Below, piece by piece: positions 5,620 through 58,104 of a stretch of 64,000 nucleotides of DNA. Source of the stretch: an uncultured delta proteobacterium. GTDB taxonomy: Bacteria > Myxococcota_A > UBA9160 > SZUA-336. The stretch's first letter is position 1. Each line of letters opens with the position of its first letter. The position numbers and the translations under genes are program-made. The notes below the pieces were generated by a model. That model did not search any database. It saw only the letters and a program-made list of their open reading frames with translations, and was not told the origin of the DNA. The DNA lies in assembly GCA_963704165.1 (NCBI GenBank), contig CAVPHD010000004.1, positions 160,001 to 224,000 on the forward strand, read 5' to 3'.

Positions 5620-5630
5620 CGGACCTCCGG

Positions 5631-6252: not shown

Positions 6253-6341
6253 ACGATATGTCTCGTCATTTCGGGTTTCTCCGTGATAGCCTCGGCTGGC
6301 AACGCAGGACGGTTTCGGGGTAGATGCGGGGTGGCGCTTTC

Positions 6342-30665: not shown

Positions 30666-30680
30666 GCCCTCGCGCCTGAC

Positions 30681-38585: not shown

Positions 38586-39866
38586 TCAGCTCTCCTCGAC
38601 CACGCCCTTGGGCGCCCGCTGATTCATGAACCCGAACATGTAGCCGGCGACGCGGCGCATCTGGATCTCCTCGGCGCCCTCGGTGATGCGGTAGCGGCGG
38701 TGGTGCCGGTAGATGTGCTCGAACGGCTTGTGGCGCGAGTAGCCGAGGCCGCCGTGCACCTGCATGGCGCGGTCGGCCGCCTCGCAGCACAGCCGGTTCG
38801 ACCAGTAGTTGCACATCGAGACCTTGTCGGAGACCGAGAAGCGCCGTTGCGTGTCCATCCGCCAGGCGGTCTTGTGGATCAGCGCGCGCAGCATCTCGCA
38901 CTGCGTCTGCAGCTCGACCAGCGGGAACTGGATCCCCTGATTGCTCGCGAGCGGCTTGCCGAAGGGCTTGCGCACCTTGGCGTACGCCACCGATTCGTTG
39001 ATGCAGAACTGCGCCGCGCCGAGGCTCGAGGCGGCCTGGCGGATGCGGTTCTCGTTGAAGAAGTGCTGCACGACCTGCAGGCCGCGGCCTTCACCGCCGA
39101 AGATCGCGCCGTCCGGCACCCGGACGTTCGTGAGCGAGACACGCGCCGTGATCGGTCGGCATGTTGAAGGTCCACAGCATACTCCTCGATCTTGAAGCCC
39201 GGCGCGTTCGTCGGCACGAGGAACGCGGTGATGCCGTCGCCGTCGCCGGCCTTGCCCGCTGGTGCGCGCGAAGATCAGGTCGTACGGCGCCTGGTGGATG
39301 CCCGTGTTCCAGGTCTTCTCGCCGTTGATGACCCAGTCGTCGCCGTCGCGGACCGCCGTGGTCTCCATGTGGGTGGCGTCGGAGCCGTGGTTCGGCTCGG
39401 TGATGCCGAACGCGAAGCCGCGTCGTGCCCGCGAGCAGGTCCGTCGAGCGCACTCCGCCTTCTGCTCCTCGGTGCCGTACGCGAGCATCAGCAGCAGGCC
39501 GACGTTGTTGCCGACGATCGAGTGCTCGTTCTGCAGGTCGTTGTGCAGGCCGAGACCCTTCGCCGCGAGGTGCTCGCGGATGATCGCCATGCCGAGGTTG
39601 GTGCCGTCCCGGCCGCCGTACTGCTTGGGCAACGGGTAGCGGTAGTGCCCGGCCTCGTCGGCGACGCGTCGCGCCTCGCGCAGCAGCAGCTCCCACTCCT
39701 CGTTCGGCAGTCCGCCGTGCTCCCAGTCGGTGCGCGCGTCCTCGCGGCGGTGGTCGAAGAAGCGGATGTTGTCGTTCTGCTGCTCGAGCGGCTTGATCTC
39801 GCGCTCGATGAATTCGTCGAGCTCGACGAGATAGGCGGCGAGGTCCCGGGGAATGTCGAAGTCCAT
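38586..39866 (-). CDS. Acyl-CoA dehydrogenase (several apparent indels)
   Basis: [53 protein letters not shown] and [10 protein letters not shown]. Confidence 0.92.
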
Positions 39867-39986
39867 GGCTGCTCCCTGTTGGCTGTCGGGTGGGCAGCAT
39901 CCTACTCCGCCGACCCGGCTCCGCGTCGCCTCGGGCGAACGCCAGGGTCGCGACGAAGCCGAGGGATTCGCGGTACGCTTCGCTCC

Positions 39987-40877
39987 ATGGCAGGCATCAG
40001 TCATCGGACCTTCGTGAGCTACATCGATCGGACGCGCGAGTTCTACGGCGCGCAGGGCTACGAGAAGCCGTACGTCTGGGCGCGCCACATCGAAGCGCCG
40101 TTCGCGCCGCTGTCGAAGCCGCTCGCGCGAGTGCCGTGTCGCGCTCGTGACGACCGCGAGTCCGTGGCGTGACGAGAAGCCGGTCGATGGGGTGCTGCGC
40201 GGCGACAAGGCGGTGTGGTCGGGGCCGACCGAGCACGCCGCCCGAACGCCTGTTCACCGACGACCTCGCCTGGGACAAGGAGGCGACCCACACCAACGAC
40301 GTCGAGTCGTTCCTGCCGATCCGACGTCTGCAGGAGTTCGCCGCGCAGGGCCGGATCGGCAGCGTCGCGGCGCGGTTCCACGGCGTGCCGACCGACTACA
40401 GCCAGCGCCGCACGATCGAGCAGGACGCGCCGGAGGTCCTCGCGCGCTGCCGCGAAGACGCGGTCGACATCGCGCTGCTCGTTCCTCTCTGACCCGTCTG
40501 CCACCAGACCGTGAGTCTGGTCAGCCGGCACCTCGAGGCGAACGGCATCGCGACGGTCGTGATCGGCTCGGCGCGCGACATCGTCGAGGAGTGCGGCGTC
40601 GCGCGCTTCCTGTTCACCGACTTCCCGCTCGGCAATCCGTGCGGGAAGCCGTACGACGTCGAGATGCAGCGCGCGATCATCGGGCATGGCGCTCGATCTG
40701 CTCGAGAGCGCGCGCGTGCCTCGCACGACCGTGCAGACGCCGTTCCCCTGGAGCGAAGACGAGAGCTGGCGGCAGAATTACGCTCGCATCGACCCCGAGC
40801 GAGCCGAGCTCTTGCGCCGGGCGGGCGAGCGCCGACGCGCTCAGCAAACTGCGGGAAAGAAGGCCGATCCCGGATGA
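39987..40877 (+). CDS. GrdB/PrdB-like (glycine/betaine/D-proline reductase B family) selenoprotein with in-frame UGA (Sec) at 40490-40492; apparent indels near 40135, 40235 and 40685
   Basis: YIDRTREFY, PFAPLSKPL, LVTTA, WDKEATHTND..SFLPI.RL, G.IG, then DIALLVPL-TGA-PVCHQTVSLVSRHLEANGIATV (UxxC motif), then DFPLGNPCG. Confidence 0.85.
40503..40521 (+). promoter_or_regulatory. Candidate bacterial SECIS hairpin
   Basis: ACCAGAC-CGTGA-GTCTGGT: a perfect 7-bp stem with GU in the apical loop. The loop begins 17 nt after the UGA. Confidence 0.7.
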
Positions 40878-41257
40878 CCCCACACGCCGCGTCGATCGTC
40901 GCCGCGCAGAAGTGCCTCGACGACTTCATGGCGGCGTTCAACGCCCGCGACCTCGGGGCATTCGAGAAGACGTTCAACTTCCCGAGCGTTCGGCTCGCGT
41001 CGAACACGCTCGTGATCATCGAGCCCGGCTACCACAAGCCGGAGATGTTCGTATCCGGCGCGCTCTCGGACTGGCATCACTCGGCTTGGGAGCGCCGCGA
41101 CGTGATCCACTCCGGCCCCGACAAGGTCCACATCGATACCCGCTTCACGCGCTATCGCGTCGACGGAAGCGCGATCGGCAGCTTCGACTCGATCTACGTG
41201 GTCACGTGCGAGAACGGCCACTGGGGAATCAAGGCACGGTCGAGCTTCGCGCCCTGA
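40874..41257 (+). CDS. SnoaL/NTF2-like small protein
   Basis: LDDFMAAFNARD...FNFPSVRL...DKVH....FTRY..DG..IG.F.S.YVVT..NGHWGIKARSSFA. ATGA overlap with the upstream gene. Confidence 0.7.
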   Translation: MTPHAASIVAAQKCLDDFMAAFNARDLGAFEKTFNFPSVRLASNTLVIIEPGYHKPEMFVSGALSDWHHSAWERRDVIHSGPDKVHIDTRFTRYRVDGSAIGSFDSIYVVTCENGHWGIKARSSFAP

Positions 41258-41946
41258 TCTCCGACGGCGAGCTCATCGCGCCGCTGCGGGCCGGGGTGGA
41301 AGAAGAGTTCCGTCCAGAGCCAGGCGATGGTCTCGGCGAGCACGTCCTTCGCTCCGGCGCTCGTCTGCCACCACGCGTCGAGGTCGTAGGTGGTCGGTCG
41401 AGCCGTGAAGATTCCGATTCGGACCTCCGGGCCGAGCGCGAGTCGATGGAGCGCCCGGGAGCGTCGGCCGTGCACGCCCGACGAGAACACGTCGATCGAA
41501 TCGACATCGACACCGGACCGTGTCACCCACTCGCGTACCATGAGGGCGTTCAGGAAGGATCGGTCGCGCGCCGAGGCCGGGGCGGGAACGGCGACGACCG
41601 AGCCCGCGGCCACGCCGCGAGAGACGATGTAGCGCCTCGCCCGATCCGCGTACGTGTCGGCCGCATCGGGGCGATCGAAGTCGTCCTCGATCGGTCCCCC
41701 CGTCGTCAGGACGAGCTCATGACCATCGCGGCGGACCAGGTCGATGGCCTGGTCGAGCTGACTTCGGGTCAGCCAGCCTTCGACCACCAGGATTCGCGCG
41801 CCGACCGGCTCGTCGATCGCGAGAAAGGTGTGGAGCCGGAGTCCCGCGAGCAGAAGCATCGACCCGCTCGCGATCCCCAGAACGAGCCAGCCCAGAGCCG
41901 TGGGGACGAAGACTTGTCGCCGTCGCAGCAACGCCGGACGCTTCAT
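41194..41946 (-). CDS. YdcF/DUF218 (ElyC/SanA-like) protein
   Basis: N-terminal TM, LVVEGW, LTTGG, DRSF.NA, SSGVHGRRS and E.IAWL. Confidence 0.7.
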   Translation of the reverse strand: MKRPALLRRRQVFVPTALGWLVLGIASGSMLLLAGLRLHTFLAIDEPVGARILVVEGWLTRSQLDQAIDLVRRDGHELVLTTGGPIEDDFDRPDAADTYADRARRYIVSRGVAAGSVVAVPAPASARDRSFLNALMVREWVTRSGVDVDSIDVFSSGVHGRRSRALHRLALGPEVRIGIFTARPTTYDLDAWWQTSAGAKDVLAETIAWLWTELFFHPGPQRRDELAVGDQGAKLDRALIPQWPFSHVTT

Positions 41947-41960
41947 CGCGCGCAGGCGGC

Positions 41961-42584
41961 CTACAGTCGCACTCCCGCGTCGCGCAGGATCGCCGTCAGC
42001 ATTCGCTTCATCACCGCGCGCGCGCTCGTGAGCGAGTTGCCTCGTCCGTGCCGAAGGTGCCCCCAGAGCACGGGCGCCATCGCGGCCGACATCGCCTCGA
42101 GCACCTCGGCCCGATCCGCCGCTTCCAGGTCCGCGAGCTCTCGACGGAACAGACGCTCGACGTCCTGGTGTTGAAGCCGAAGCGCGTCCCTCGACACCCG
42201 CAGGGCCTGATCGGCCGCCGGTCCGATCAGCGTTTGCGCGGTCAGCGCGCGCGTGAATGCCGCCATGGCTTCGAGGAACTTCGAGCGGACCTGCGCCAGA
42301 TGCTCGACGCGGGACGCGATCGGCTCGCGGTCGGAGATCTCCTCCAGGTACGGTGCGCAGCGCTGCATCCCCACTTCGACGACGGCGTCGTAGAGCTCCG
42401 CGAGATCCGCGAAGTGGTTGAAGATCGACCGACGCGAGACGCCCGCGCGCTCGGCGATCTGATCGGCGCTCGGTTGGAGCGCGCCTTCCTGCACGAGATC
42501 CAGGCAGGCTTCACAGATCGCCAAGCGCGACTGAACGGTGCGGCTCTGCCGTCCGTCGAGGTTGCCGGCCGTTCCCGAGGACAT
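41961..42584 (-). CDS. TetR family transcriptional regulator
   Basis: N-terminal HTH PSADQIAERAGVSRRSIFNHF. Confidence 0.92.
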   Translation of the reverse strand: MSSGTAGNLDGRQSRTVQSRLAICEACLDLVQEGALQPSADQIAERAGVSRRSIFNHFADLAELYDAVVEVGMQRCAPYLEEISDREPIASRVEHLAQVRSKFLEAMAAFTRALTAQTLIGPAADQALRVSRDALRLQHQDVERLFRRELADLEAADRAEVLEAMSAAMAPVLWGHLRHGRGNSLTSARAVMKRMLTAILRDAGVRL

Positions 42585-42587
42585 GGG

Positions 42588-44429
<1,842 letters not shown>

Positions 44430-44464
44430 CGTGTGGTCATCCTCTGAGCTGGGTTCGGCGATTA

Positions 44465-44481
44465 TTGCACTATGAGTGCAA
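44465..44481. promoter_or_regulatory. Inverted repeat TTGCACT-ATG-AGTGCAA, candidate TetR operator
   Basis: Perfect AT-rich 7-3-7 palindrome in the 71-bp gap between the divergent BVMO and P450 genes. Confidence 0.65.
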
Positions 44482-44500
44482 ATCGTTCAAGCTCGGGTCC

Positions 44501-45762
44501 ATGGCAGAGCAGAGTGCGGTCAAGGCCCGACCGAAGCCGAGCTGGCACGGCGCGGATCCGGCAGAGCCGGCCCTACCTCGACGATCCCTACCCCGTCTAC
44601 CGACGTCTTCGCGAGGAGCACCCGGTCAGCCTGACACCTGATGGTGTCTGGCGGCTCACGCGCTACGACGACTGCCTGCGCATGCTCCGTCTCACCGGCG
44701 CCGGCATGCGGCGCACCGACGGGACGCTTGCCCGGACAGACCCTCGAGGAGGCCGCGGCGGAAGAGCGCGGCCAGTTCATGCTGCTCACGGATCCGCCCA
44801 AGCACACGCGTCTGCGCAAGCTCGTTTCCAAGGCGTTCACGCCGCGCGCGATCGGAGCCTGGCGCCCGCGGATCGAAGCCGTGACCGACGAGCTGCTCGA
44901 CCGCGCGGAGAAGTCGCGGCGAGATGGATCTGATCGCGGACCTCGCGCTGCCGGTTCCCGCGACGCTGATCTGCGAGATGCTCGGCGTGCCGGTGGGAGA
45001 CCGCGACACGTTCACCGAGTGGACGGCCGATGCCACCCACGGCCTCGCGCTGCGCCGCGGAAATTCGCCGCCCGGAGATCGTCGAGCGCGTCGAGAAGGC
45101 TCGCATGGGCCTCGCTGGCTACTTCAACCGGCTGATCCAGGCCCGCCGCGGGCAGACCGGCGACGATCTGCTGAGCGTGCTGATCGCCGCGGAGGAAGAG
45201 GGCGATCGGCTCAGTCCCGAGGAGCTTCTGATCCAGTCGATCGGGCTGCTGATCGCCGGCTTCGAGACGACGATCGGGTTGATCGGCAACGGGCTCACCA
45301 CGCTGATCCGCAACCCCGGCGAGATCGCGCGGCTCCGCGCACAGCCCGAGCTGATCGAGAGCGCGGTCGAGGAGTGCTTGCGCTACTCGGGGCCGATCAC
45401 GTGGACGGTGCGCATCCTCCACGAGCCGGCCGAGTTCGGCGGCTACGCGCTCGACGCGAACGAAGAGGTCGCCGTCGGGCTCGCCGCCGCGAACCGCGAC
45501 CCCGAGCACGTTCGCCGATCCCGAACGCTTCGACATCGCGCGCTTCGCCGCGATCCCCGCACCACCGCCACATCTCTCCTTCGGCGGCGGCGCGCATCTG
45601 TGTCTCGGCGCGCACCTCGCGCGGCTCGAGTCGCAGATCGCCATCGGAAGGCTCGTGCAGCGCTTCACGGATCTCGAGCTCGTCGAGCCGAAGACGACCT
45701 GGGGACGCTCGCTCTTCCGGGTTCCGGCGCGGGTGCCGGTGCGGTTCCGCGCGAGCACCTGA
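44501..45762 (+). CDS. Cytochrome P450 (several apparent indels)
   Basis: DPYPVYRRLRE..PV, DPPKHTRLRKLVSKAFTPR, I-helix LLIAGFETT, ExxR (EECLR), heme motif FGGGAHLCLGAHLAR. Confidence 0.93.
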
Positions 45763-45916
45763 GTGCGCCCATGATCGGGGGATCCGGCTCGCGGCCGCCA
45801 TCTCGGTCCCGCAACGGGACTTTTCGGCGTCGAAATCTGGTCTCTGGGCCGAGTATGAGCCAATATGACGCCGCTCATACGCCGCGTTTGCACGCGGGAG
45901 TACGGTGTCACTGTCA

Positions 45917-46441
45917 ATGAAGACGAACTCCGAAATGAGCGAGATCCCGGCCGTTGTCGTGGCCCAGGTGAACGGCCGCGTGGTGAACCAGAACGCGACC
46001 GCCCGTCGCCTGATGGGAGACGGCGAAGGCCGCGACTGCTGGCACGTCGTCGGAGGTCTGAAGGACGCGGAAGGCTTGCCGTGTCGCACGGGCTGCGTCC
46101 GTGAGCTGCTCGCGAGCGGAATGGACCGCGCCCGGCACACGCGCATCTCGCTCGCCGGGCGACAGCACTCCCTGACCTGCGTGCCGATCGAGGGCGCGGT
46201 CGTCTGTTCGCTGAGCTCGCCCTCGGCGCAGCAGCCGGAGACGTGGGAGCTGCTCACCGCGCGCGAGCGCGACGTGCTTCGGCTTCTCGCGCTCGGAAAG
46301 ACCGACCGCGCGATCGCGGCCGACCTCGGGCTCAGCAGCTCGACGGTGCGAACCCACGTCGAGCACATGCGCTCCAAGCTCGGCGTCGGCACGCGGGCCG
46401 CGTTGGTCGCCCGCGGCTTCGACCTGGGTTTCCTGTGCTGA
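45917..46441 (+). CDS. LuxR-type HTH regulator with an N-terminal Cys-rich PAS-like sensor
   Basis: C-terminal LTARERDVLRLLALG.TDRAIAADLGLSSSTVRTHVEHMRSKLG. N-terminal VV.QN.TARRLMG...DCW.VV.....GLPC..GC. Confidence 0.88.
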   Translation: MKTNSEMSEIPAVVVAQVNGRVVNQNATARRLMGDGEGRDCWHVVGGLKDAEGLPCRTGCVRELLASGMDRARHTRISLAGRQHSLTCVPIEGAVVCSLSSPSAQQPETWELLTARERDVLRLLALGKTDRAIAADLGLSSSTVRTHVEHMRSKLGVGTRAALVARGFDLGFLC

Positions 46442-46470
46442 CGCCGCTCGCCGCGGCTTCGCGCTTCGAG

Positions 46471-46488
46471 ATCGGTCAAATGACCGAT
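46471..46488. promoter_or_regulatory. Palindrome ATCGGTCA-AA-TGACCGAT, candidate LuxR-type operator upstream of nod
   Basis: Perfect 8-2-8 inverted repeat about 120 bp before the nod start, with no U-tract. Confidence 0.55.
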
Positions 46489-46607
46489 TCGCAGCAGATC
46501 CGACCCTGCCTAGGATCTCGCCGGATTTCCATCCGGACGTTTTCGATTCCAAGACGGGAATGGTGCCGTCTTGTTGTGTCGCCTCCAACCGACCGAGGGA
46601 GCCAGAA

Positions 46608-48931
46608 ATGAGCAATGAGAAGAGGAACCTAGCCCAAGTACTGCACGACAAGAAAACGTGGTGGGTCCACTTTCTGATCGTCGCTGCAATCTGTCTGAGC
46701 GGGCTCGTCTATCTCGGCACGGAGACCTACTACGGGGGCTCCGCCGCTCGAGAGCTACGTCTCGACCTCGGGCGAGGTGGTGATCCCGCTCGAGCAGATC
46801 AAGCAGGGTCAGGAGGTCTTCCACCTCCGCGGTCTGATGCTCTACGGCTCCTTCTGGGGTGACGGTGCCGAGCGCGGGCCGGACTTCACGGCCGACGCCC
46901 TGCACCGGACCGCCGTCGCGATGCGGGAGTACTACGAGCGGCACACGGAAGGGGCGCTGACGCAGTACGACAAGGACGCGATCAGGGCCCGGGTGATCCG
47001 CGAGATCAAGACGAACACCTGGAACGAGGGCGCGAAGAACATCGTGGTCAACGATGCTCAGATCCACGCGTTCCAGGAGCTGAAGACGCACTACACCAAG
47101 ATGTTCAACGACCCCGAGTACGCGGAGGCGTTCGAGCCGACGGGATTCATCAGCGACCAGGCCCAGCTCGACGCCCTGTCGGCGTTCTTCTTCTGGGGTG
47201 GTTGGGTTTCCGGCGCGAAGCGGCCGGGTCAGGAGTACAGCTACACGCACAACTGGCCGTACGATCCGGAGGCCGGCAATCTCGCGACGAACGAGACCCT
47301 GATCTGGAGCGTGGTCTCCATCTTCGGACTCTTCCTCGGCGTGCTCGTCATCCTGTACGTCTACGGCCAGTTCAAGGAGGAGGGCGATCCGTTCACGGGT
47401 AACGGGACGTCGCTCACCACGAACGACCTCGAGGTGGGCCGCATCCGCGCTACGCAGAGGGCCTGCTACAAGTTCTTCGTCCTCTCGATCATCCTGTTCG
47501 GGCTCCAGGTTCTCGCGGGAATGCTCGCGGCCACCGACTTCGTTCGCCCGTTCGGGATCTCGCTCGCGAGCATCATCCCGTTCACCGTTCTGCGCAGCTA
47601 CCACACGCTGTTCCAGATCTACTGGTTCTTCATGGCATGGGTCGGCTACACGGTCTTCTTCCTGCCGCGAATCTCGCGAGTTCCGGATGGCCAGCTCTTC
47701 CTGATCAACCTGCTCTTCGCGATCTGCATCGTGACGGGCGTCGGCGCGCTGGTCGGCATCTACGCCGGACAGACCGGAATGATCACCGGTCAGACCGCCT
47801 ACTGGTTCGGAAGCCAGGGCTGGGAGTTCATGGAGCTCGGCCGCGCCTTCCAGTACACGCTGCTCAGCTCGTTCGCGCTGTGGATCTTCATCATCTACCG
47901 CGCGGTCAAGCCGTGGCTGACGACGAAGAACGTCTGGTCGGTTCCTTCGTGGCTGCTCTACGGCAGCGGCATCATGGTCGGCTTCCTGTTCTTCGGGCTG
48001 ATGATCTCGCCCGATCAGAACTGGGCCGTCGCCGACTACTGGCGCTGGATGGTCGTGCACATGTGGGTGGAGGTGACCTTCGAGGTCTTCACCACCGTGA
48101 TCGTCGGCTACATGCTCGTACAGATGGGCCTGATCTCGCGCATGATGTGCGAGCGGGTCATCTTCCTGGCCGTCATGATGTTCCTCGTCACCGCGACGCT
48201 GGGCATCTCGCACAACTTCTACTGGATCGCGAAGCCGACCGGCATCATCGCGGTGGGCGGAGTCTTCTCCACCCTCCAGGTGCTGCCGCTGCTGCTCCTG
48301 ACGCTCGATGCGTGGCGCATGAAGTCCGAGGCGGTCCGCGCGCGGACGCACCTCCTCGCGGGACGGCAGGTCTACGTGATGGAAGGTGTCTGGCTGTACG
48401 TCCTCGCGGTCAACTTCTGGAACATCTTCGGAGCCGGCGTCTTCGGCTCGCTCATCAACCTTCCGATCGTCAACTACTACGAGCACGCGACCTACCTCAC
48501 CGGCAACCACGCACACGCGGCGATGTTCGGTGTGAAGGGCAACATCGCGATCGGCGGAATGCTGTTCTGCGCTCAGCACCTGCTCCCGAACAAGGTCTGG
48601 AACGAGAAGCTGATCCGGACGTCCTTCTGGTCGATGCAGATCGGTCTGCTTGATGATGATGGGTCTGGATCTGTTCCCGGTCGGCGTCTACCAGCTCATG
48701 CTCGTCTTCCGGGAAGGCCTGTGGTTCGCACGGACCCAGGAGGTTCTGACCGGGCCGGTGTGGGCGACCCTGACCTACATGCGCTCGATCGGTGGAACGC
48801 TGTTCATCGTGGGCGGCGTGCTGCCCCTGATCTGGCTGTTCCTGTCCAGGGCCGGCCAGCTTCGGCAGGAGACCCCGGAGCTCGAGCAAGAGGGCGAGTG
48901 GACCGTCTACGAGAAGGACTGGGCAGCGTGA
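46608..48931 (+). CDS. nod: Putative nitric oxide dismutase (Nod-type divergent qNor); apparent frameshifts near 46735 and 48648
   Basis: qNor scaffold (YGSFWGDG..RGPDFTADALH, YSYTHNWPYD, SQGWEFMELGR, heme ligands RSYH and NHAH). It has HMWVEVTFEVFTT, GISHNFYWIAKP (second FeB His to Asn), STLQVLP (Glu to Gln), no AHYxxE quinol motif, and RSIGG instead of R..(G/P)D. Confidence 0.85.
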
Positions 48932-48946
48932 GCTGACCCGGACGAG

Positions 48947-48999
48947 GAGGGGGTTCCGGCGCACAGCGGGTCGAGCCCGTCGGACGCCGGAGCCCCCTC
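48947..48999 (+). terminator. Strong stem-loop just after nod (terminator or mRNA-stabilising hairpin)
   Basis: GAGGGGGTTCCGGCG ... CGCCGGAGCCCCCTC form a 15-bp stem enclosing a small inner hairpin. Only a weak U-tract follows. Confidence 0.5.
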
Positions 49000-49082
49000 G
49001 ACGTTTCCATCGCGCTCGCGGGATAATGTGATGGGTCCGGTCGCGCACCGCGCGAATCGGATCGTGAGCTGGGAGTGCGCCC

Positions 49083-49460
49083 GTGGCCAACATGATCACC
49101 GAGGAATGCGTCAATTGCGGTGCATGTGAGCGCATGTGCCCGGGCGGCGGGATCTCCCAAGGGGAAGAGACGTTCGTCATCGATCCCAGCCGCTGCACCG
49201 AGTGTGTCGGCTTCCATCACACGCAGCAGTGCGCGCGGGTCTGCCCGGTCGATTGCTGCGTGATCGATCCGAACAACATCGAGACCGAGGCCGTGCTCTT
49301 CGAGCGCGCACAGAAGCTGCACGACATCACGGGCCGCGAAGTCGTGCTCGGGCCGGAGACTTCGCACTACCAAGCCCACAAGCGCACGCTCGGCACGACG
49401 CTGAAGAAGCTGAGCCGAGGCCTGACCGACGTCCTTCAGGGGCCTCGACGGCGTTCCTGA
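49083..49460 (+). CDS. YfhL-type 2x[4Fe-4S] ferredoxin
   Basis: ITEECVNCGACERMCP...IDPSRCTECVG.....QCARVCPVDC. Confidence 0.92.
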   Translation: MANMITEECVNCGACERMCPGGGISQGEETFVIDPSRCTECVGFHHTQQCARVCPVDCCVIDPNNIETEAVLFERAQKLHDITGREVVLGPETSHYQAHKRTLGTTLKKLSRGLTDVLQGPRRRS

Positions 49461-49607
49461 ATCGCTCCGCTGCGAGAGCCTGACTCCCCTGCGTCGAGCC
49501 CCATGACATATGATCGACGTCATGGAGAATCCTGCCTTCGCTGACGACAATTCGAAGAAGCCCATGATGATCCCGCTTTCATCCTCTACCGGTCGGGTGC
49601 TTTAGAG

Positions 49608-49895
49608 ATGTGGAAGTACTACGCGCTGATGTTCGTCGCCGTTGCGCTGATTCTCGCGTACACGTACGTTGCGGACCCCTGCCACAAGATGCTTCGAACC
49701 GACTTCGCGAAGGCGAATCCCAACTTCGTGATCCTGGATTCGGAGGCCGAGTCGGGTGCCCCGGAGAGTGTTCACTGCCGGATCTCGTATCAGAAGCCCG
49801 GTGACGACGGGACGTACGAAGACGTCTGGGTCTACCACCGGGGGAGACGGGTTGGGAGTTCTCCCGGGTCAGCGAGTCGGGAGCAAAGAGGCTGA
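49608..49895 (+). CDS. Small hypothetical membrane-anchored/exported protein
   Basis: N-terminal hydrophobic helix, two Cys, plausible codon usage. The 3' end is uncertain. Confidence 0.5.
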   Translation: MWKYYALMFVAVALILAYTYVADPCHKMLRTDFAKANPNFVILDSEAESGAPESVHCRISYQKPGDDGTYEDVWVYHRGRRVGSSPGSASREQRG

Positions 49896-49944
49896 CCTCC
49901 CCGTGACCTACGGTCCGCATCGCGTATCGGCGAATAGCGGCTGG

Positions 49945-50961
49945 ATGTGTCCCCGTTTCAACTCGGCGAGCCTTTTGCGCATGGTCCGCGAAGTGGCCCC
50001 GGGAGTTCTCGGCTTTCAGATGGGCGTGGAGCTGCGATTGTGGCTTCAGCGTCGGCGGGTCGGTGGAGAGCGCGTGCTTCCGACGGCGCTCTATCTCGAG
50101 ACGTCGAGCTACTGCGCCGGCGCCTGCGCCAATTGCTATGTGCCGGCCGTCGATCGTCGCCAACACCTCCAACTCGATGTCGGCATGCTCGATCGTCTGC
50201 TCGTCGCTGCAGAGAAGCTGCCGATCGCGTACGTCTGCATCGTCGGTGGCGAGCCGCTGGACCCATCGATCGTCGATCTCAACTTGCGCCTCGTGCGCGA
50301 GCACCCGCGCACGCGGTTCCTGATCTGCACGAGCGGTGAGCCGGAGATCGGGCCGGAGCTCGGACGCGAGCTCGGTGCGCTCCGCAACCTCTCCCTTCTG
50401 ATCTCGTTCGAAGGCCTTCCCGAGACGCATCAGAGCATCCGCCCCCGCGGCTCCTTCGACAACGCGAGCGCCGCCTTGGATGCCTACCGTCGCTACAGCG
50501 GCAGTCTGTGCGGAGCGAGCGTCACGCTCCGTCCGGACAACTGGCAAGAGGCCACGGGTCCGGAGTTCTTCCGGCAGCTCACGAGCGCGGGTGCTCAGTA
50601 CTTCGTCTACGCTCCGTGTGAGACCCGAACCGGGAACCAGATGCTGAGCCCGGAGCTGCACGCCAGCGCTCTCGATCGACTCGCCGAGCTCTCCGCATCG
50701 TCGAGTGCGCTGGTCTTCTCGTACCCCTTCGGACAGATCCAGGGACGACGAATCGCGCCCGCTCGACGCTTTCGTTCCCTCACCGTGGACTACCTGGGCA
50801 ACGTCTACATCGCGCGCCGTGGTGCGTGCTTCGGCAACGTCTACGACACCGACCTCGCTACGCTGCTCTCTCGGCCCGCGCTCCAGACCGCGTACAGTCA
50901 GGCCGCCGCTGGCCCCGCCCACTGGCGTCCGACGTCGGTGCCGACGGGCGCTTGGACCTGA
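49945..50961 (+). CDS. Radical SAM protein
   Basis: CAGACANCY, IVGGEP, ISFEG...H..IR..GSF and GASVT. Start uncertain. Confidence 0.85.
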   Translation: MCPRFNSASLLRMVREVAPGVLGFQMGVELRLWLQRRRVGGERVLPTALYLETSSYCAGACANCYVPAVDRRQHLQLDVGMLDRLLVAAEKLPIAYVCIVGGEPLDPSIVDLNLRLVREHPRTRFLICTSGEPEIGPELGRELGALRNLSLLISFEGLPETHQSIRPRGSFDNASAALDAYRRYSGSLCGASVTLRPDNWQEATGPEFFRQLTSAGAQYFVYAPCETRTGNQMLSPELHASALDRLAELSASSSALVFSYPFGQIQGRRIAPARRFRSLTVDYLGNVYIARRGACFGNVYDTDLATLLSRPALQTAYSQAAAGPAHWRPTSVPTGAWT

Positions 50962-50979
50962 GCTCGACGATTCACGTCC

Positions 50980-51597
50980 TCACAGGTAGAGGCAGACGTA
51001 GAGCACGGGCCAGATGCCGACGGCGAAATACCACGAGATGCACGCGGCCGAGAAGGCGCTGCTACTCAGCGCGGCCCTCGCGGGGACGTTCTCATCGCGG
51101 AAGGGCTTGAGGCGCAGCCAGATGACGCTCAGGAAGCTCAGCGTCCCCACCACGTGCAAGGCGTGCATTCCGACGATGATGCAGAAGAACACGCCGTGAT
51201 CGCTCGAGGTCAGCGTCAGGCCGTCGTCGATCAAGTTGCGCCACACGATGCCCTGGAAGAACAGGAAGAAGCTGCCCAGAACGATCGCGGCCAGGAGGAG
51301 TGGACCGATTCGCGCGTCTCGATTGTCCCAGGTGCGCGCTGCCCGGAACACGAGGGCGCCGCTTGCCAGCAGTGCGGCGGTGTTGATCGCGGTCTCGCCC
51401 AGCGGGAACCAAGGCTGATTCGGGGGCGGCCAGACGGTGCCATCTACCGATCGCGTCAGCATGAACGCGGTCACCATTCCGAGGAACATCATCGCCTCGG
51501 AGACCACGATGACGATCATCGCGACCATGCCGCGATCGATCGCGAATCGGCGCGCGCGTCGATGCGGCTGAATCGAGACCACGTTCTGTCCGCTCAT
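50980..51597 (-). CDS. Stand-alone cytochrome c oxidase subunit III / NorE-like membrane protein
   Basis: SEAMMF.G...AF, NTAALLASG, LGSFFL.FQG..W, G.FF.I.VGMHALHV.G and WYF..GIWPVLY..LY. Confidence 0.8.
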   Translation of the reverse strand: MSGQNVVSIQPHRRARRFAIDRGMVAMIVIVVSEAMMFLGMVTAFMLTRSVDGTVWPPPNQPWFPLGETAINTAALLASGALVFRAARTWDNRDARIGPLLLAAIVLGSFFLFFQGIVWRNLIDDGLTLTSSDHGVFFCIIVGMHALHVVGTLSFLSVIWLRLKPFRDENVPARAALSSSAFSAACISWYFAVGIWPVLYVCLYL

Positions 51598-51719
51598 GCG
51601 CTGGACTCCCGCACGGGGCCGCTCGTCGGTGGGCACCACCGTCACGGCTTTCGAACGAATCGCATTCTATCAGTCGGCGACGCCGTCCGCCCAGGTCCGG
51701 CGGCAGAGGCTTCGGAAGC

Positions 51720-52373
51720 ATGCGAGTGACGGCGATCATCTTCGACATGGACGGCACGCTCGCCGATTCCATGGAGCAGTACTACGGGATGGCACGCGAC
51801 GTCACGGAGCTGGCGGGCGCGCCACCGGTCTCGCGCGAGCGCGTCCTGGCCCTGATGGGCAGCGGAGAGCCCGAGCTTCTCCGGCGTCTGCTCCCGGACG
51901 ACTTCCTCGACGCCGAGGCCGTGTTGCAGCGCGTGGTGCGCATGCGGATGGCAAGCTGGATCCGCAGCCTCGACGAGATCGATCCGCTGCCCGGCTGTGT
52001 CGATCTGCTCCGCCACCTGCACGGCGAAGGCCGTCAGCTCGGAATCGCCACGTCGTCGGGGCGCGCGCTTCCGTACCTGGACCGTTGGGGTGTGCGCGGT
52101 GTCTTCTCGTCGATCGTCGGTCGCGAAGACGTGGCCAATCGCAAGCCGCACCCCGAGCCGGTTCTCCGTTGCCTCGCCGGCCTCGGAGTCGCGAACGAGC
52201 GCGCGCTCTACGTCGGAGATTCGCCGATCGACATCGCCGCCGGGCGCGCAGCGGGCGTGCGCACCGTCGGTGTTCTCACCGGCACCAGCACGCGCGATGT
52301 GCTCGAAGCCGCGGAACCCGACCACGTACTCGCGAGCGCGGCCGAGCTGCCGGAGCTGCTCCGCGACGAATGA
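51720..52373 (+). CDS. HAD family hydrolase (phosphoglycolate phosphatase-like)
   Basis: FDMDGTL.DS, IATS, KPHPE and YVGDSPIDI.AGRAAG. Confidence 0.9.
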   Translation: MRVTAIIFDMDGTLADSMEQYYGMARDVTELAGAPPVSRERVLALMGSGEPELLRRLLPDDFLDAEAVLQRVVRMRMASWIRSLDEIDPLPGCVDLLRHLHGEGRQLGIATSSGRALPYLDRWGVRGVFSSIVGREDVANRKPHPEPVLRCLAGLGVANERALYVGDSPIDIAAGRAAGVRTVGVLTGTSTRDVLEAAEPDHVLASAAELPELLRDE

Positions 52374-52391
52374 GGCGTCGATGGGTTCCGG

Positions 52392-52719
52392 TCAGATTGC
52401 GCCGAGAAGACCGAGAGGCGTGCCGTCCGCGCTCACGAACGCGAGAGGTGGATCGGCGGGGTAGCCGAGATCGACGAGCTGCGCGCGCCAGGCGTGCACC
52501 GTCGCGCCGGCCATCAGAAGCACCCGCGTAGTGCGCGGCTGATCCGGGGACGATCTCGAATTCGATCTCGTGCGCCTCTTCCCCGAGTCGTCCCAGGCGC
52601 CACGGGCGAATTGTGATCAGCTCGGGATCGCCGGATCCCGCCCCCACGAGGCACACGAGGCCGCTCGCTGCGAGTCCTCCCGCAATTCCAGCACTCGAAG
52701 GTCGCGCGGCGAGATCCAT
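52392..52719 (-). pseudogene. Remnant of uroporphyrinogen-III C-methyltransferase (nirE/cobA-like) with internal deletions
   Basis: Collinear fragments VCLVGAGSGDPELITIR, GRLGEE, FEIVPG, YAG and, in another frame, VLLMAG...LVDLGYPADPPLAFV...GTP, all compressed into about 330 bp. Confidence 0.7.
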
Positions 52720-52934
52720 GCCGCGCTACTGAGGCGGAACGCCCTCTTTTGCCGACCGATCTCGACAGAAGCGCCACAACGATAGCGAGTGGATAGTGGC
52801 AATTTGCACCATAATTCGTGGTTCCTGCCCATCCGATCCGGCTCCAGACGGCTCGCAGCGAATCTGGCGCGTGCGGCGACGCCGTCCTCGGAGCGGGTAT
52901 CCGACTTGCAATTGGCCGCCGCGGGAGGTCCGAC

Positions 52935-54617
52935 ATGCGCCATCTCGCAACGAATCGCACCCACTCTTTCGAACGAGCCCTCGCCCTGACGGCGCGAGTG
53001 CTCGGGTGCGTGCTCGCGATCGCGATCCTGGCGGGGTCCGCGTTTGCGGCCGAGCCCGCCAAGACCCCGGCGGTGGTCAAGCAGCCGGTGCCGAAGCTCA
53101 CCCCTGCCGAGCTCGCGGAGGGCACGCAGATCTACTTCGATCGCTGTGCGGGCTGCCATGGAACGCTTCGCAAGGGCGCGACCGGACCGAAGATCGACGA
53201 CGAGGCGATGCTCGAGAAGACTCTTTCGAAGCTCGAGGAAGTCATTCACGACGGCACCGACGCCGGCATGCCGGGCTGGGGCCGCACCGGCGAGATGACC
53301 GCGGCGCAGACCAAGCTGATGGCGAAGTTCCTGCAGAACCCGCCTCCGATTCCGCCCGAGATGAGCCTCGCGGACATGAAGAAGAGCCACAAAGTCTACG
53401 TGCCCGTCGACAAGCGGCCGACGAAGCCGCAGCACAAGTACGACGTGGACGAGCTCTTCGGCGTGATTCTGCGCGACGCGGGCAAGGGCGCGATCATCGA
53501 CGGCAAGAGCAAGGAGCTCATGACCGTCGTCGACACCGGCTTCGCGGTCCACATCTTCCGCTCGTCGGGGACCGGCCGCTACTTCTACACGATCGGCCGC
53601 GACGGCAAGGTGAGCCTGATCGACCTGTTCGCAGCCAAGCCCACCGTGGTCGCCGAGGTTCGAACTTGTTCCGACGCGCGCAGCGTCGAGGTTTCGAAGT
53701 ACAAGGGTCCGAAGGGCGACTTCGTCGACAAGCTCGCGATCGTCGGCTGCTACTGGCCGCCGCAGCTCGTGATCCTCGACGGGCAGACGCTCGAGCCCAA
53801 GAAGGTCATCTCCACCCGATCGATGACCTACGACACCAACGAGTACCACCCCGAGCCGCGCGTTGCGACGATCATCGCTTCGCACTTCGACACGGAGTGG
53901 GTCATCGCGATCAAGGAGACGGGTCTCGTCTGGCTGCTCGACTACTCGGACCTCGTCAACGTCAAGATGCACCAGATCGAGACCGAGCGGTTCCTCCACG
54001 ACGGCGGATGGGACGCGACGAAGCGCTACCTGCTGATCGCCGCCAACATGCGCGACCAGATGGTCGTCGTGGATACGAAGGAGAAGAAGTTCGTCACCAA
54101 GTTCGAGACCGGCGTGAAGCCCCATCCCGGGCGTGGCGCGAACTGGGACGATCCGGAGTTCGGTCCGGTGAGCGCGACCACGCACCTCGGCGAGGGGAAG
54201 ATCACGGTCTACGGATCCGACCCCGCGGGTCATCCGCAGCACGCGTGGAAGATCGTGCGTGAGCAGGAGACGGCGGGTCCGGGTCTCTTCCTCAAGACCC
54301 ACCCGAAGAGCGAGAACGTCTGGACCGACGCGACCTTCGCGAAGGACGGCAACTCGAATCAGACGATCTGTGTCTTCAAGAAGAAGAGCTTCGACGACGG
54401 CGCCCAGTGTTTCGAGGCGACCAAGCACGGGAAGATCGTGCACTTCGAGTACAACAAGGCCGGCGACGAGGTCTGGGCGTCCGTCTGGGACAGGAAGGGC
54501 GTGCTGATCGTCTACGACGACAAGACGCTCGAGGAGAAGGCTCGGATCGAGGCGGACTGGCTGGTGACTCCCACCGGGAAGTGGAACGTCTACAACACCG
54601 TTCACGACGTCTACTGA
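52935..54617 (+). CDS. nirS: Cytochrome cd1 nitrite reductase
   Basis: Signal peptide, YFDRCAGCHG.LRKGATG, ILRDAG, TGFAVHI.R.S, YHPEPRVA.I.ASH, FLHDGGWD, PHPGRGAN, LFLKTHP and TPTGKWNVYNT.HDVY. Confidence 0.97.
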   Translation: MRHLATNRTHSFERALALTARVLGCVLAIAILAGSAFAAEPAKTPAVVKQPVPKLTPAELAEGTQIYFDRCAGCHGTLRKGATGPKIDDEAMLEKTLSKLEEVIHDGTDAGMPGWGRTGEMTAAQTKLMAKFLQNPPPIPPEMSLADMKKSHKVYVPVDKRPTKPQHKYDVDELFGVILRDAGKGAIIDGKSKELMTVVDTGFAVHIFRSSGTGRYFYTIGRDGKVSLIDLFAAKPTVVAEVRTCSDARSVEVSKYKGPKGDFVDKLAIVGCYWPPQLVILDGQTLEPKKVISTRSMTYDTNEYHPEPRVATIIASHFDTEWVIAIKETGLVWLLDYSDLVNVKMHQIETERFLHDGGWDATKRYLLIAANMRDQMVVVDTKEKKFVTKFETGVKPHPGRGANWDDPEFGPVSATTHLGEGKITVYGSDPAGHPQHAWKIVREQETAGPGLFLKTHPKSENVWTDATFAKDGNSNQTICVFKKKSFDDGAQCFEATKHGKIVHFEYNKAGDEVWASVWDRKGVLIVYDDKTLEEKARIEADWLVTPTGKWNVYNTVHDVY

Positions 54618-54632
54618 TCGGAGGAAGGATTC

Positions 54633-55242
54633 ATGCAGCGTCTCCTGATCGCGGTCGTATCCGCGTGCGTCTTGGGTCTCGTATCGGGACCGGCGCACGC
54701 GGACGGAAAGAAGCCCCACCAGTTCGCCGGGGCCGTGAAGTGCCGGTCCTGCCACGAGAAGGACGAGATCGGAAACCAGTACGGGAAGTGGCTGGACTCG
54801 AAGCACGCAAAAGCTTGGAGCACGCTCGCGTCCGACAAGGCGAAGGAGTGGGGCAAGAAGCGGGGGATCGACGATCCCCAGGCTTCCGACAAGTGCGTCA
54901 AGTGCCACGTTGCCGCGCACGGCGAGCCCAAGCCGCGTCTCAGCATGAAGTACTCCCCCAAGGAGGGCGTGACCTGCGAGGCGTGCCACGGCCCGGGAAG
55001 CGACTACCGGAAGAAGAAGATCATGATGAACCAGGACGAGGCGGTGAAGAGGGGCCTCGATCCTGCAGACCGAGAAGGTCTGTCTGACCTGCCACAACGA
55101 CGAGAGCCCGGCTTGGGATCCCGCACGCTACAAGCTGGCCGGCGGCAAGACGGCGGGGTTCGACTACGAGCAGGCGAAGAAGGCGATCGCTCATCCCGTG
55201 CCCGAGGGGTACGACCCCTCGAAGGACAGCGGGGACGAGTAG
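54633..55242 (+). CDS. Periplasmic tetraheme cytochrome c (c554-like); apparent frameshift near 55065
   Basis: CRSCH, W..SKHAKA, CVKCH, EGVTCEACHGPGS and, after the shift, CLTCH..ESP...FDY...IAHP. Confidence 0.85.
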
Positions 55243-55267
55243 AGAATGCTGGACGAGGAGGGGCACG

Positions 55268-55899
55268 GTGAAGAGCTCGGGTAAGCGCGTTCTAGCCGCG
55301 ACCTGGACGGTCCTCGGCGGAGCTCTCGTCACCGTCCTCATGCTCTTCACGCTCCAGTGCTCCCACGACAAGGACGGGAGTCGCAGCGACTACCCGAGTC
55401 GCACTACTTCCACCCGAGCCCGCGCCCGTGCTCCTGGCCAGCCCCGAGCCGAGCGACGACTACTTTCCCTGCAGCGACTGCCACGACGAGACCATGAAGA
55501 CCAATCGAGCGCGCCGCGATGCTCGAGGACGATCACGACGATCTCGAGGCTCGCTCACGGAGATCTCTGGTGCCTGCAGTGCCACGTCGGCCGAGGACCG
55601 CGACTTGCTGCACCTCTCCGACGACACGGCCGTCGAGTTCGGGGAATCCTGGAAGCTCTGCACGCAGTGCCACGGAAAGAAACTCGCGGATTGGCAGGCG
55701 GGAGTGCACGGAAAGCGCACCGGTCACTGGTGGGGGCCGAAGGAGTACCGGACCTGCGTCTCCTGCCACGATCCTCACTCGCCGCGCATTCAAGGGAATC
55801 GAGCCGCGACCGCGGCCCCGGCGACCGGAAGAGATCCGCCGCGCGGCCGCCGTCGCCGAGGAAGCGCGTCCGCAGGAGGTCTCCGATGAAATCCGATGA
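55268..55899 (+). CDS. Membrane-anchored multiheme cytochrome c (4 CxxCH); several apparent indels
   Basis: N-terminal TM. CSDCH, WCLQCH, LCTQCHG....W..GVHGKRTG.W and CVSCHDPHSP, spread across frames. Confidence 0.8.
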
Positions 55900-56820
55900 T
55901 CGCGACGCGCCGCTCGACGCGAAGGGAGCCTCCCGGCGCAAGTTCCTGCGCACCGCAGTCGCGGGAGCGGCGGCGGTCACGGGGGTTGGCGCGCTCACCG
56001 GCTGCGAGTTCGACCTCGAGAGCGTGCTGCAGAGGCCATTTCCGCGAGATGTCGCGCGCGGATCTCGACCGGGTCCTCGAGCGGCTCCAGAAGAAGTACT
56101 CCACGCGTTACGGCGAAGGACGTGAAGGTCACCGCGACCGGGCCGATCGACGGGGTCGTCTTCGGCTACGGCCTCGACATCTCGCGCTGCGTCGGCTGTC
56201 GCAAGTGCGTGTACGCCTGCGTGGACGAGAACAACCAGTCGCGGGATCCGCAGATCCAATGGATCCGCGTCCTCGAGTTCGAGCGCGACCAGGTGATCCG
56301 CGGGATCAACCTCGAGGACGGCAACCCCTACTACGAGCACGAGCAGGTTCCCGCGGAGGACAAGATGTACCTCCCCGTCGCCTGCCAGCACTGCGACGAC
56401 TCTCCGTGCACGCAGGTCTGCCCGACGGGGGCGACGTGGATGGAGCCCGACGGAATCGTCGTGATCGACTACGACTGGTGCATCGGCTGCCGCTACTGCA
56501 TGGCGGCTTGCCCGTACGGCGCGCGCAAGTTCAACTGGGGCGAGCCGAATCTCCCCGCCGACGAGGTGAATCCGGACATGCACCTCCTCGGCAATCGCCC
56601 CCGGGCGCGGGGCGTCGTCGAGAAGTGCAGCTTCTGCATCCAGCGCGTGCGCGACGGGCGCTACCCCGCATGCCTAGAGGCGTGTCCGGTGGGCGCGCGG
56701 AAGTTCGGAAATCTCCTCGACCCGAACAGCGAGATCCGGCAGCTGCTCGCGACCAAGCGCACGTTCGTGCTCAAAGCCGAGCTCGAGACCCATCCCAAGT
56801 TCTTCTACTTCTGGGGCTGA
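55886..56820 (+). CDS. Tat-exported multi-[4Fe-4S] protein (NrfC/DsrO-like); apparent indels near 56040 and 56120
   Basis: Twin-arginine motif SRRKFL. CVGCRKCVYAC, CQHCDDSPCTQVCP, CIGCRYCMAACPYGAR and KCSFC...PAC..ACP. Confidence 0.9.
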
Positions 56821-56824
56821 TTCG

Positions 56825-58049
56825 ATGAACTCGGTTCTCCACTTCTGGCGCTTCATCGACGGCAGCGCGCGCGTGGTGGCGCGCGGCAATGCCGCGGCTA
56901 CTACGCGTGGCTCGGTCTCCTCGTGGCGGCTGATCGTGATCGGCGTCCTCGCATTCGGAAACCAGACTCAGAACGGCCTGATCGTCTCGAACATGCGCGA
57001 TCAGGTCTCCTGGGGCTTCTACATCGGGAACTTCGCCTTCCTCGTCGGTGTGGCCGCGGCGGCGGTCATCCTGGTGATTCCCGCCTACGTGTACAGGTGG
57101 GGACCGATCAAGGAGGTGGTGATCCTCGGCGAGATCCTCGCGGTCTCCGCGATCATCATGTGCATGCTCTTCGTCGCGATCGACGTCGGACGCCCCGACC
57201 GGTTCTGGCACCTGTTTCCTGGTGCCGGGACGCCGCACTTCCCCAGCTCGCTGCTGGTCTGGGACATCCTCGTCCTGAACGTCTACTTCGTGATCAACTT
57301 GTTCGTCGTCACCTACCTCGTCTTCAAGAGCTACATGGGCCAGCAGTACAACGTCGTCGTTCATCATGCCGGTGATCTTCCTCTCGATCCCGTTGGCGGT
57401 CGAGCATTCACACCGTGACCGCGTTCCTGTTCATGGGGCTGAAGTCGCGGCCGTTCTGGAACAGCGCGATCCTCGCGCCGCGCTTCCTCGCGAGCGCGTT
57501 CTGCTCCGGCCCGGCGCTGATGGTCCTGATCTTCTCGATGCTTCGGTCGGTTCGCCCGATTCCGATCTCCGGACACGGCGCTGCGAAAGATCGGCGAGCT
57601 GCTTGCCTACGCGATGGCGGCCAACCTGTTCTTCCTCGGCTGCGAGGTCTTCCGCGAGTTCTACTCGGCCAGCGCTCACTCGGTCCACGCCGAGTTCCAG
57701 TGGTTCGGGATCGAGGAGCGCGGAATCGCCGGCTACACGTGGTTCGCGCTCGCCTGCAACTCCATCGCGTTCGTGATCTTCCTGGTCCCCGCGCTGCGCG
57801 ACCGCATCCGGACCTCTGAGCGTGGGCTGTGCGCTCGCGGTGATGGGGGTCTTCATCGAGAAGGGCCTGGGACTTCTGCTCCCCGGGCTCACACCCGACG
57901 CGCTCGGCGAGGTCTACCACTACACCCCGAGCGTGAACGAGGTGCTCGTCGGCCTCGGGATCTGGGCCATCGGGGCGCTCTGCTTCACGCTGATGACGAA
58001 GGTCTCCATCGCCATCACGCTCGGCGAGTTCCGCCACCAGAAGACCTGA
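56825..58049 (+). CDS. NrfD/PsrC/DsrP-family quinol-interacting membrane subunit; several apparent indels
   Basis: MRDQVSWGFYIGNF.FLVGVAAAAV, DVGRPDRFWH, SLLVWD, IHTVTAFL, RPFWNSAILAPRFLASAF.SGPAL, IEKG.GL..PG and YTPS..E. Confidence 0.88.
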
Positions 58050-58104
58050 AGCTCGTCGGGTCGCGCAAGGTCGTCTCCGACCGCGACCTGCCTTCTCGAA
58101 GCAG

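Follow-up and report, generated by a model that had tools for sequence, protein, structure and literature searches.

Does a putative nitric oxide (NO) dismutase supply oxygen to the oxygenases encoded beside it? This question is raised by a 64,000-nucleotide stretch of DNA (the window) from an uncultured delta proteobacterium of the UBA9160 lineage, in which nod, a gene of the qNor family, lies next to genes for a cytochrome P450 and a Baeyer-Villiger monooxygenase (BVMO). The original prediction held that NirS makes NO, that Nod splits it into N2 and O2, and that this O2 feeds the adjacent P450 and BVMO. We compared the locus within one class set of 225 genomes (G-numbers, with G000 the source genome; L-numbers are DNA regions and C-numbers contigs) and with 80 related nod loci from GTDB. 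We propose, tentatively and stopping short of calling it probable, that nod is switched by a PAS-LuxR regulator through an upstream box and makes O2 from the NO of NirS or NirK for a set of co-occurring enzymes predicted to be diiron and flavin oxygenases, the adjacent P450 and BVMO being unconserved.

Nod carries the signature of a putative NO dismutase

The window corresponds to C4:160001-224000 of a 3.87-Mb genome that is 84% complete and contains many frameshifts. Its nod gene (46608-48931, plus strand) is interrupted by two of them in the assembly and is 87-88% identical to the intact copies in G002 and G021. The P450 gene (four segments), nosZ and other genes are also frameshifted, in a pattern typical of long-read errors; because of these breaks, nod, P450 and nosZ may be pseudogenes.

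When Nod was aligned with the qNor 3AYF, the FeB ligand His560 was found to be replaced by Asn (SHNFYW against GHHYY) and the catalytic Glu581 by Gln. The His-to-Asn change and the Asn/Gln pair are each present in 80/80 of the related GTDB loci. The quinol site is lost, with His328 changed to Thr, Glu332 to Arg and Phe336 falling in a gap (hand count on the alignment; we take these three numbers to be the quinol-site residues of 3AYF), and a C-terminal Asp is Gly when compared with 6FWF. The qNor architecture is kept, as are the other His ligands of the hemes and Fe. A canonical qNor identity was rejected, as Nod does not retain the three FeB His, the catalytic Glu and the quinol site. The FeB His-to-Asn change, the Glu-to-Gln change and the lost quinol site are features of NOD set out in PMC3413370. 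As a putative NO dismutase, Nod may turn NO into N2 and O2.

Genomes carrying nod at ≥70% identity were counted as nod genomes, which gave 18/225 in the class and left 207 others. This threshold excluded two divergent Nod-like genes, one in G215 (counted among the 207) and a second copy in G009. The encoded proteins are 41-44% identical and bear the Asn/Gln signature (L119 in G215; L098:18386-19960 in G009, in tandem with nod).

NO formation by NirS or NirK is established chemistry. In agreement with the original prediction, a YfhL-type 2x[4Fe-4S] ferredoxin gene (49083-49460, plus strand; NCBIfam), which recurs beside nod, follows nod in the window, and nirS, encoding the cytochrome cd1 nitrite reductase and putative NO source (52935-54617, plus strand; Pfam; heme d1 genes follow), starts 4.0 kb after the nod end. 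The position of the block between the nos and nir clusters also held, with all named genes recovered by Pfam and NCBIfam. nirK lies about 1 kb beyond the window end. On the other side, nosZ for a Sec-dependent clade II N2O reductase (approximately 30586-32696, minus strand) matches TIGR04246, is intact in G021 and is followed by nosD/F/Y.

The source genome also encodes a ba3-like heme-copper oxidase (G000 C7:174863-176152; L159:6693-8495) with Gln at the position of ba3 Tyr237, so that the active-site Tyr is missing. With Gln taken as the eNOR signature, a motif that did not turn up in the supplements searched, it is a candidate eNOR-type enzyme. Genes for SCO, cytochrome b and UbiA accompany it, and homologues occur near nod in L018, L019, L044 and L091. 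Oxidase families lacking this Tyr have been proposed as NO reductases in bioRxiv 2021.10.15.464467 and PMC11214002. The C7 oxidase is, from its sequence, a second candidate NO reductase of the source genome. A qNor or cNor is also encoded in 7/18 nod genomes.

A nod box and a PAS-LuxR regulator accompany nod

A palindrome, ATCGGTCA-AA-TGACCGAT, which we call the nod box (46471-46488), precedes nod and is the top site in the genome at 28.6 bits. It is the predicted site of the LuxR-type regulator encoded immediately upstream (45917-46441, plus strand), a predicted nod regulator whose PAS-like N-terminal domain has four invariant Cys. The box precedes nod in 25/25 of the upstream regions used for the matrix, which were selected, not random; the training set was partly picked by LuxR presence, so the match between box and regulator is partly circular. 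Across the 80 GTDB nod loci, a box of ≥15 bits was found in 15/15 loci with a local LuxR gene and in 9/65 without one, and five of these nine carry the LuxR gene elsewhere in the genome. The LuxR sensor domain (four invariant Cys, 10 sequences compared) was detected in 17/18 nod genomes versus 7/207 others, and the box is likewise absent from G016, the one nod genome without the regulator. A strict box pattern occurred in 12/18 nod genomes versus 19/207 others, and a reversed control pattern in 2/225.

A PDB sequence search with the LuxR protein matched the helix-turn-helix only, and the Atlas lead for its N-terminal domain was a PAS_4 cluster at 0.90. These data suggest that the PAS-LuxR protein likely binds the nod box and switches nod; from its conserved Cys, we infer that it would sense O2 or NO via a Cys-held Fe-S cluster.

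Further boxes were located 5' of other genes: in G139 an AurF-like gene, in G093 a radical SAM-ferredoxin-AurF operon, in G079 a ferredoxin-P450 pair and in G183 an HsaA-like monooxygenase gene. nirK operons are preceded by a box as well. In the window, no box was found 5' of the P450 (-9.9 bits) or BVMO (-5.2 bits) gene, versus 28.6 bits at nod, or at nirS or the nos operon. Intragenic matches in G006, G027, G062 and G139 were treated as chance. A metagenome motif scan returned mostly apparent chance hits: among at least 120 matches, 80 of them with flanks, two lay upstream of nod and one at a flavin pair of the kind described below.

The second-best box of the source genome (22.3 bits, C11:226707) sits in the promoter region between two divergent flavin halogenase-like genes. 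In random sequence, about 3 of 10,000 windows of 300 bp score 20 bits or more. Two AurF-like genes come next, of which one falls in the AurF-like clade defined below, with a desaturase gene and a luciferase-like gene alongside. In G051, a boxed flavin halogenase-like pair with the same box offset adjoins nod. The flavin-pair box is also present in G036 and G037 (15 bits) and in the independent metagenome contig L274. In all, the pair is boxed in 4/9 nod genomes plus L274. The box-type flavin paralogue, delimited by a cut-off set afterwards at a score gap, was found in 9/18 nod genomes versus 3/207 others, the wider family being present in 70/225.

Predicted diiron enzymes and other oxygenases travel with nod

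We then compared nod loci with 33 control loci (9 qNor and 24 cNor, one of them just 2 kb long and one adjoining a nod island), taking "near" as within about 10 kb. An AurF-like diiron clade, defined at ≥54% identity with the cut-off fixed before the search, was near nod in 7/18 loci versus 0/33 controls; two controls had distant AurF-like genes. Genome-wide, the clade was present in 14/18 nod genomes versus 7/207 others. Within the seven genera having both kinds of genome it was found in 11/12 nod versus 2/30 nod-less genomes, and among nod-less genomes it was found in 2/38 with qNor or cNor and 6/70 with nosZ. Fisher tests overstate the significance of such counts because the genomes are related and not independent.

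The structure model of the AurF-like protein (predicted local distance difference test score 90) matches AurF, CmlI, R2lox and aldehyde-deformylating oxygenase. The clade has a four-helix dimetal fold with paired ExxH ligands, and E/DEARH/E/DEARH is invariant. The fold suggests that its members are candidate O2-activating diiron enzymes. The AurF tree was poorly resolved, and pairwise identities were used in its place.

P450 genes, detected with a hidden Markov model built solely from the other P450s of the source genome, were near nod in 6/18 loci versus 0/33 controls, with 1.1 expected from genome density. They are of CYP107-like, CYP101/143-like and CYP51-ferredoxin fusion types; a single conserved P450 partner of nod was thus rejected, the nearby P450s coming from at least three families. 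Genes for Coq4-like, PhyH, hydroxylase/desaturase and luciferase-like proteins also recur around nod. Eukaryotic COQ4 requires O2 according to the account in bioRxiv 2023.11.13.566839; a Coq4/Coq7/UbiB-like quinone pathway was considered and not established. A count of any O2-enzyme family (14/18 versus 9/33; 24% of random windows) was set aside and not relied on because its queries were taken from nod loci and bias it. The original suggestion of a link between Nod and oxygenases beyond methane or alkane monooxygenase gained comparative support, yet for AurF-like diiron, flavin halogenase-like and Coq4-like proteins and other P450s, not for the pair in the window.

Several related arrangements were observed. 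A (ferredoxin)-globin-PAS-LuxR-P450 unit occurs in G184 (L268:3711-6349), G093 (L269:4287-7038), G121 (L262:39-2380) and G139 (L021:16409-18790); its P450s are 77-80% identical, no box was found upstream, and its P450 makes a stronger candidate than that of the window for a link to NO or O2. In two Rhodobacteraceae genomes, P450 and fatty-acid desaturase genes lie directly 5' of nod on the same strand (L023:5611-8206, L027:6984-9729). A CYP51-ferredoxin fusion (sterol 14-demethylase-like) is encoded <6 kb from nod in two families, with 87% identity (L019:2228-3883, L020:15855-17948). Outside the class, O2-dependent families recurring near nod, counted without a control set, include a Rieske oxygenase with an FAD monooxygenase (L087-L092), TauD (L058, L065, L066, L078) and PhyH (L025, L026, L028, L031). 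In genus g1, two nod genomes had 5-8 scored P450 hits and seven nod-less genomes 18-24.

The adjacent P450 and BVMO are recent neighbors of nod

The original prediction placed the BVMO and P450 genes, together with a TetR and an acyl-CoA dehydrogenase gene, directly upstream of luxR-nod. The genes are present, but two unrelated open reading frames part the dehydrogenase gene from that for TetR. The dehydrogenase gene (38586-39866, start approximate, minus strand; Pfam) is a backbone gene in common with G021 and lies outside an inserted trio that comprises a TetR regulator (41961-42584, minus strand; Pfam), the BVMO (42588-44429, minus strand) and the P450 (44501-45762, plus strand, four frame segments). 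The P450 gene alone is co-directional with luxR-nod; the other three point away. The PtlE-like BVMO, which scores below the family cut-off, was recognized by Pfam, NCBIfam and BVMO fingerprint motifs, and the CYP107-like P450 by Pfam and its AGFETT and FxxGxHxCxG motifs. Across the source genome, approximately 10 P450 loci and about five BVMO/FMO-like loci were counted.

Neither enzyme is a conserved companion of nod. The synteny check that had been suggested found both in 0/17 of the other class nod loci and 0/80 of the GTDB nod loci. G021, a nod genome of the same genus that is 97% complete, has the order nos-M48-PQQ-acyl-CoA dehydrogenase-...-luxR-nod-ferredoxin without TetR-BVMO-P450; about 180 bp stand there in place of the 3.9-kb trio, and the flanks are collinear. 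A conserved nod-P450-BVMO cassette was accordingly rejected, being absent in G021 and in all 80 GTDB loci. The BVMO gene is not enriched near nod, occurring in 2/18 nod loci (the window and G009) versus 3/33 controls (L123, L126, L145).

The two enzymes came from different places. The TetR gene lies downstream of the BVMO gene as one unit, which is found elsewhere in G021 and in nod-less G022. In G021, TetR-BVMO has 84% DNA identity and lies on contig C4 (nod is on C12) between genes mapping to source-genome C6. In nod-less G022 and G027, the P450 gene lies between genes mapping to G000 C1:125482 and C1:126266, a slot that is empty in G000; this P450 is 69% identical, compared with 81-84% for the flanking genes. 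The separate ancestral sites in relatives, and the absence beside nod there, indicate that the trio was brought together recently from two sources, the P450 being a recent arrival at the site. The slot that holds BVMO-TetR in nod-less G022 is filled in the source genome by a Coq4-like/unknown/ferredoxin/PhyH/AurF-like/TetR cluster (L155:8037-13209, equal to G000 C1:208036-213200; also L130).

A perfect palindrome between the BVMO and P450 genes (44465-44481), a predicted TetR operator, is kept 5' of the BVMO gene in G021 and nod-less G022, which marks TetR-BVMO as a unit of its own; TetR is predicted from this site to regulate the BVMO gene via its own operator. Downstream of the P450 gene, a GC hairpin plus T4 (45805-45824, plus strand) is a possible weak terminator splitting it from luxR (fold z -1.9; the terminator scan did not flag it). 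A second palindrome 5' of luxR (45853-45880) is conserved in G021, where no P450 gene precedes. These results indicate that the P450 and BVMO are recent, unconserved nod neighbors, a product of ordinary genome shuffling. Both could use cytoplasmic O2 of any source, with no specific tie to Nod.

Competing explanations for the nod module

The proposal favored here starts from direct observations, namely gene content, the Nod signature, the missing trio beside nod in relatives, the box, the box-regulator match and the co-occurrence of the AurF-like clade. In the proposed mechanism, NirS or NirK would supply NO; the PAS-LuxR protein, sensing O2 or NO by an Fe-S cluster, would activate nod through the box; and Nod, in keeping with a published hypothesis, would dismutate NO to N2 and O2. 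Co-occurrence and partial co-regulation suggest as O2 clients the AurF-like diiron clade with its ferredoxin, the flavin halogenase-like pair, Coq4-like proteins and various P450s. The O2 would probably serve small-flux lipid or cofactor modification and not bulk catabolism. The separate Tyr-less ba3-like oxidase would provide NosZ with N2O, the two completing ordinary denitrification. A bolder form, which we consider speculative and somewhat unlikely, has Nod heading a "dark-oxygen" regulon in the class and partly in Gammaproteobacteria, in which the Fe-S PAS-LuxR and box turn on nirK, Nod, ferredoxins and diiron, flavin and P450 enzymes, with oxygenases repeatedly recruited and the window P450 and BVMO the latest.

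Several observations weigh against O2 supply by Nod. It may instead be an NO sink, a reductase or detoxifier in a micro-oxic or nitrosative-stress module whose diiron and flavin enzymes share the niche and would draw on traces of external O2 or act on NO themselves. We regard this as a serious possibility, if one we lean away from. nosZ is present in 16/18 nod genomes versus 70/207 others, which fits such a role, and nirK itself, with globin, NnrS, Rrf2 and hemerythrin genes, lies inside the nod module; nirK operons bear the box. In G039 (89% complete), the module and its two boxes are present but nod is absent, and none was found in G039, G121 or G183 (82-90% complete) despite the presence of the regulator and the diiron clade. 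In G039 (L254, G039:C64:26000-45999), nod is missing between the ferredoxin gene and the nirK operon, as a natural deletion or a pre-insertion state. Checks of the regulon on sequences outside the original sample came out mostly negative. A further 19 AurF-clade regions, often TetR-ferredoxin-AurF units, yielded no box of ≥15 bits, and general box control of AurF-clade genes was not found (0/19). The flavin pair is boxless in G078, G093, G185 and G186, and its site in G021 is degenerate. The A-type O2 reductase, an aerobic oxidase, encoded in the source genome means that its oxygenases can run on ambient O2. Moreover, bioRxiv 2023.11.21.568154 states that no purified Nod has ever been assayed and that Nod may make N2O. 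On the other side, NO reduction needs a quinol site and a catalytic Glu that Nod does not have, other NO reductases or candidates are at hand in the source genome and in the seven nod genomes with qNor or cNor, and the AurF clade is rare in nod-less denitrifiers.

In another reading, which appears improbable, the window P450 and BVMO were relocated to luxR-nod as recipients of Nod-made O2; the coupling would be recent and lineage-specific and would let lipids, steroids or cyclic ketones be attacked under anoxia. Two oxygenases from two ancestral sites did converge on one spot, and the P450s that recur around nod or its regulator come from at least three families, with the globin-LuxR-P450 units and the box-ferredoxin-P450 arrangement of G079 among the cases. 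However, the arrangement is not conserved even inside the genus, the BVMO has its own TetR operator, kept in nod-less G022, and is not enriched near nod, neither gene has a nod box, and the P450 gene is broken in the assembly and followed by a possible terminator. With the linkage absent in relatives, an outcome that the original prediction had named as refuting it, and no box at either gene, the claim that Nod specifically feeds these two enzymes is unsupported. A misassembled trio is very improbable. The assembly has many indel errors, but the donor sites are contiguous in the source genome, where the C1 site is empty (784 bp) and the C6 site has other content, no repeat copies of the junctions occur elsewhere, the G+C level is flat over the nod block, and the flanks are collinear with G021.

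Other genes of the window

Between nod and nirS, a small unknown protein that is a recurrent nod neighbor (49608-49865, end approximate, plus strand) is followed by two genes that recur in the nod module, for a radical SAM protein (49756-50961, plus strand; Pfam) and a COX3-like membrane protein (50980-51645, minus strand; Pfam). An imperfect palindrome (49502-49525) lies upstream of the small gene, 3' of the ferredoxin gene. Directly 3' of nirS, the region 54633-58348 encodes multiheme cytochromes, a 4Fe-4S protein and an NrfD-like subunit, which may form a quinol-to-NirS electron conduit. About 5 kb past nirK, L156:9311-11669 carries an HsaA-like flavin monooxygenase gene, a glyoxalase/dioxygenase-family gene and a TetR gene. 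At the window start (1-13873), two giant repetitive surface proteins of about 1800 and 2200 amino acids are encoded, with tandem Ig/cadherin-like and beta-helix repeats.

Significance and comparison with known systems

The product of Nod, and the use of its O2 outside methanotrophs, is the question that these candidates address. The box motif, the candidate sensor and a soluble co-occurring diiron family open cheap, direct tests of Nod function. If the bolder, dark-oxygen form of the proposal is true, denitrifying heterotrophs would run oxygenase chemistry without external O2. Adjacency of the P450 and BVMO genes alone should not serve as evidence for coupling to Nod.

What is new here is the box, the regulator and the diiron clade; Nod in this lineage was already known, and the first-reported adjacency is not what carries the interest. 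A literature search that covered listings and passages of papers found nothing on a nod box or on diiron or flavin partners. In the passages covered, surveys of nod (bioRxiv 2023.11.21.568154; PMC13386854) mention that certain nod genes have LuxR-type regulators and ferredoxins as neighbors. They describe neither a consistent neighborhood nor an evident O2-consuming system close to nod and leave the link to LuxR unclear, in contrast to the box, matching regulator distribution and co-occurring diiron clade reported here. NOD has been catalogued in the UBA9160 genus PR03 (Murali et al. 2024, PMC11214002), and two of the closest nod loci are PRO3, matching that genus. The excerpted accounts of GTDB NODs in PMC11214002 and Ruff et al. 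2024 (PMC11549561) contain no upstream box, regulator assignment or partner oxygenase family.

Compared with known enzymes, the window P450 and BVMO share fingerprint motifs with CYP107-like P450s and type I BVMOs (PtlE-like), but the BVMO scores below the PtlE cut-off, and BVMOs and CYP107-like P450s of these types are common in the family regardless of nod. The AurF-like clade resembles AurF/CmlI, R2lox and aldehyde-deformylating oxygenase in fold (template modeling score 0.68 to AurF) and invariant ligands, and differs from them in its 13-20% identity and in being usually paired with a single-cluster ferredoxin and TetR. Nod itself is most like the putative NOD of Ca. Methylomirabilis oxyfera and strain HdN1 (Ettwig et al. 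2012, PMC3413370), which shares the qNor family, the FeB His-to-Asn and Glu-to-Gln changes and the lost quinol site, and for which O2 supply to monooxygenases has been proposed there. No methane or alkane monooxygenase turned up near nod, no search aimed at them having been made. In contrast to those organisms, nod is here a single copy inside a nos-nod-nir island, and its candidate clients are AurF-like diiron, flavin halogenase-like, Coq4-like and P450 enzymes.

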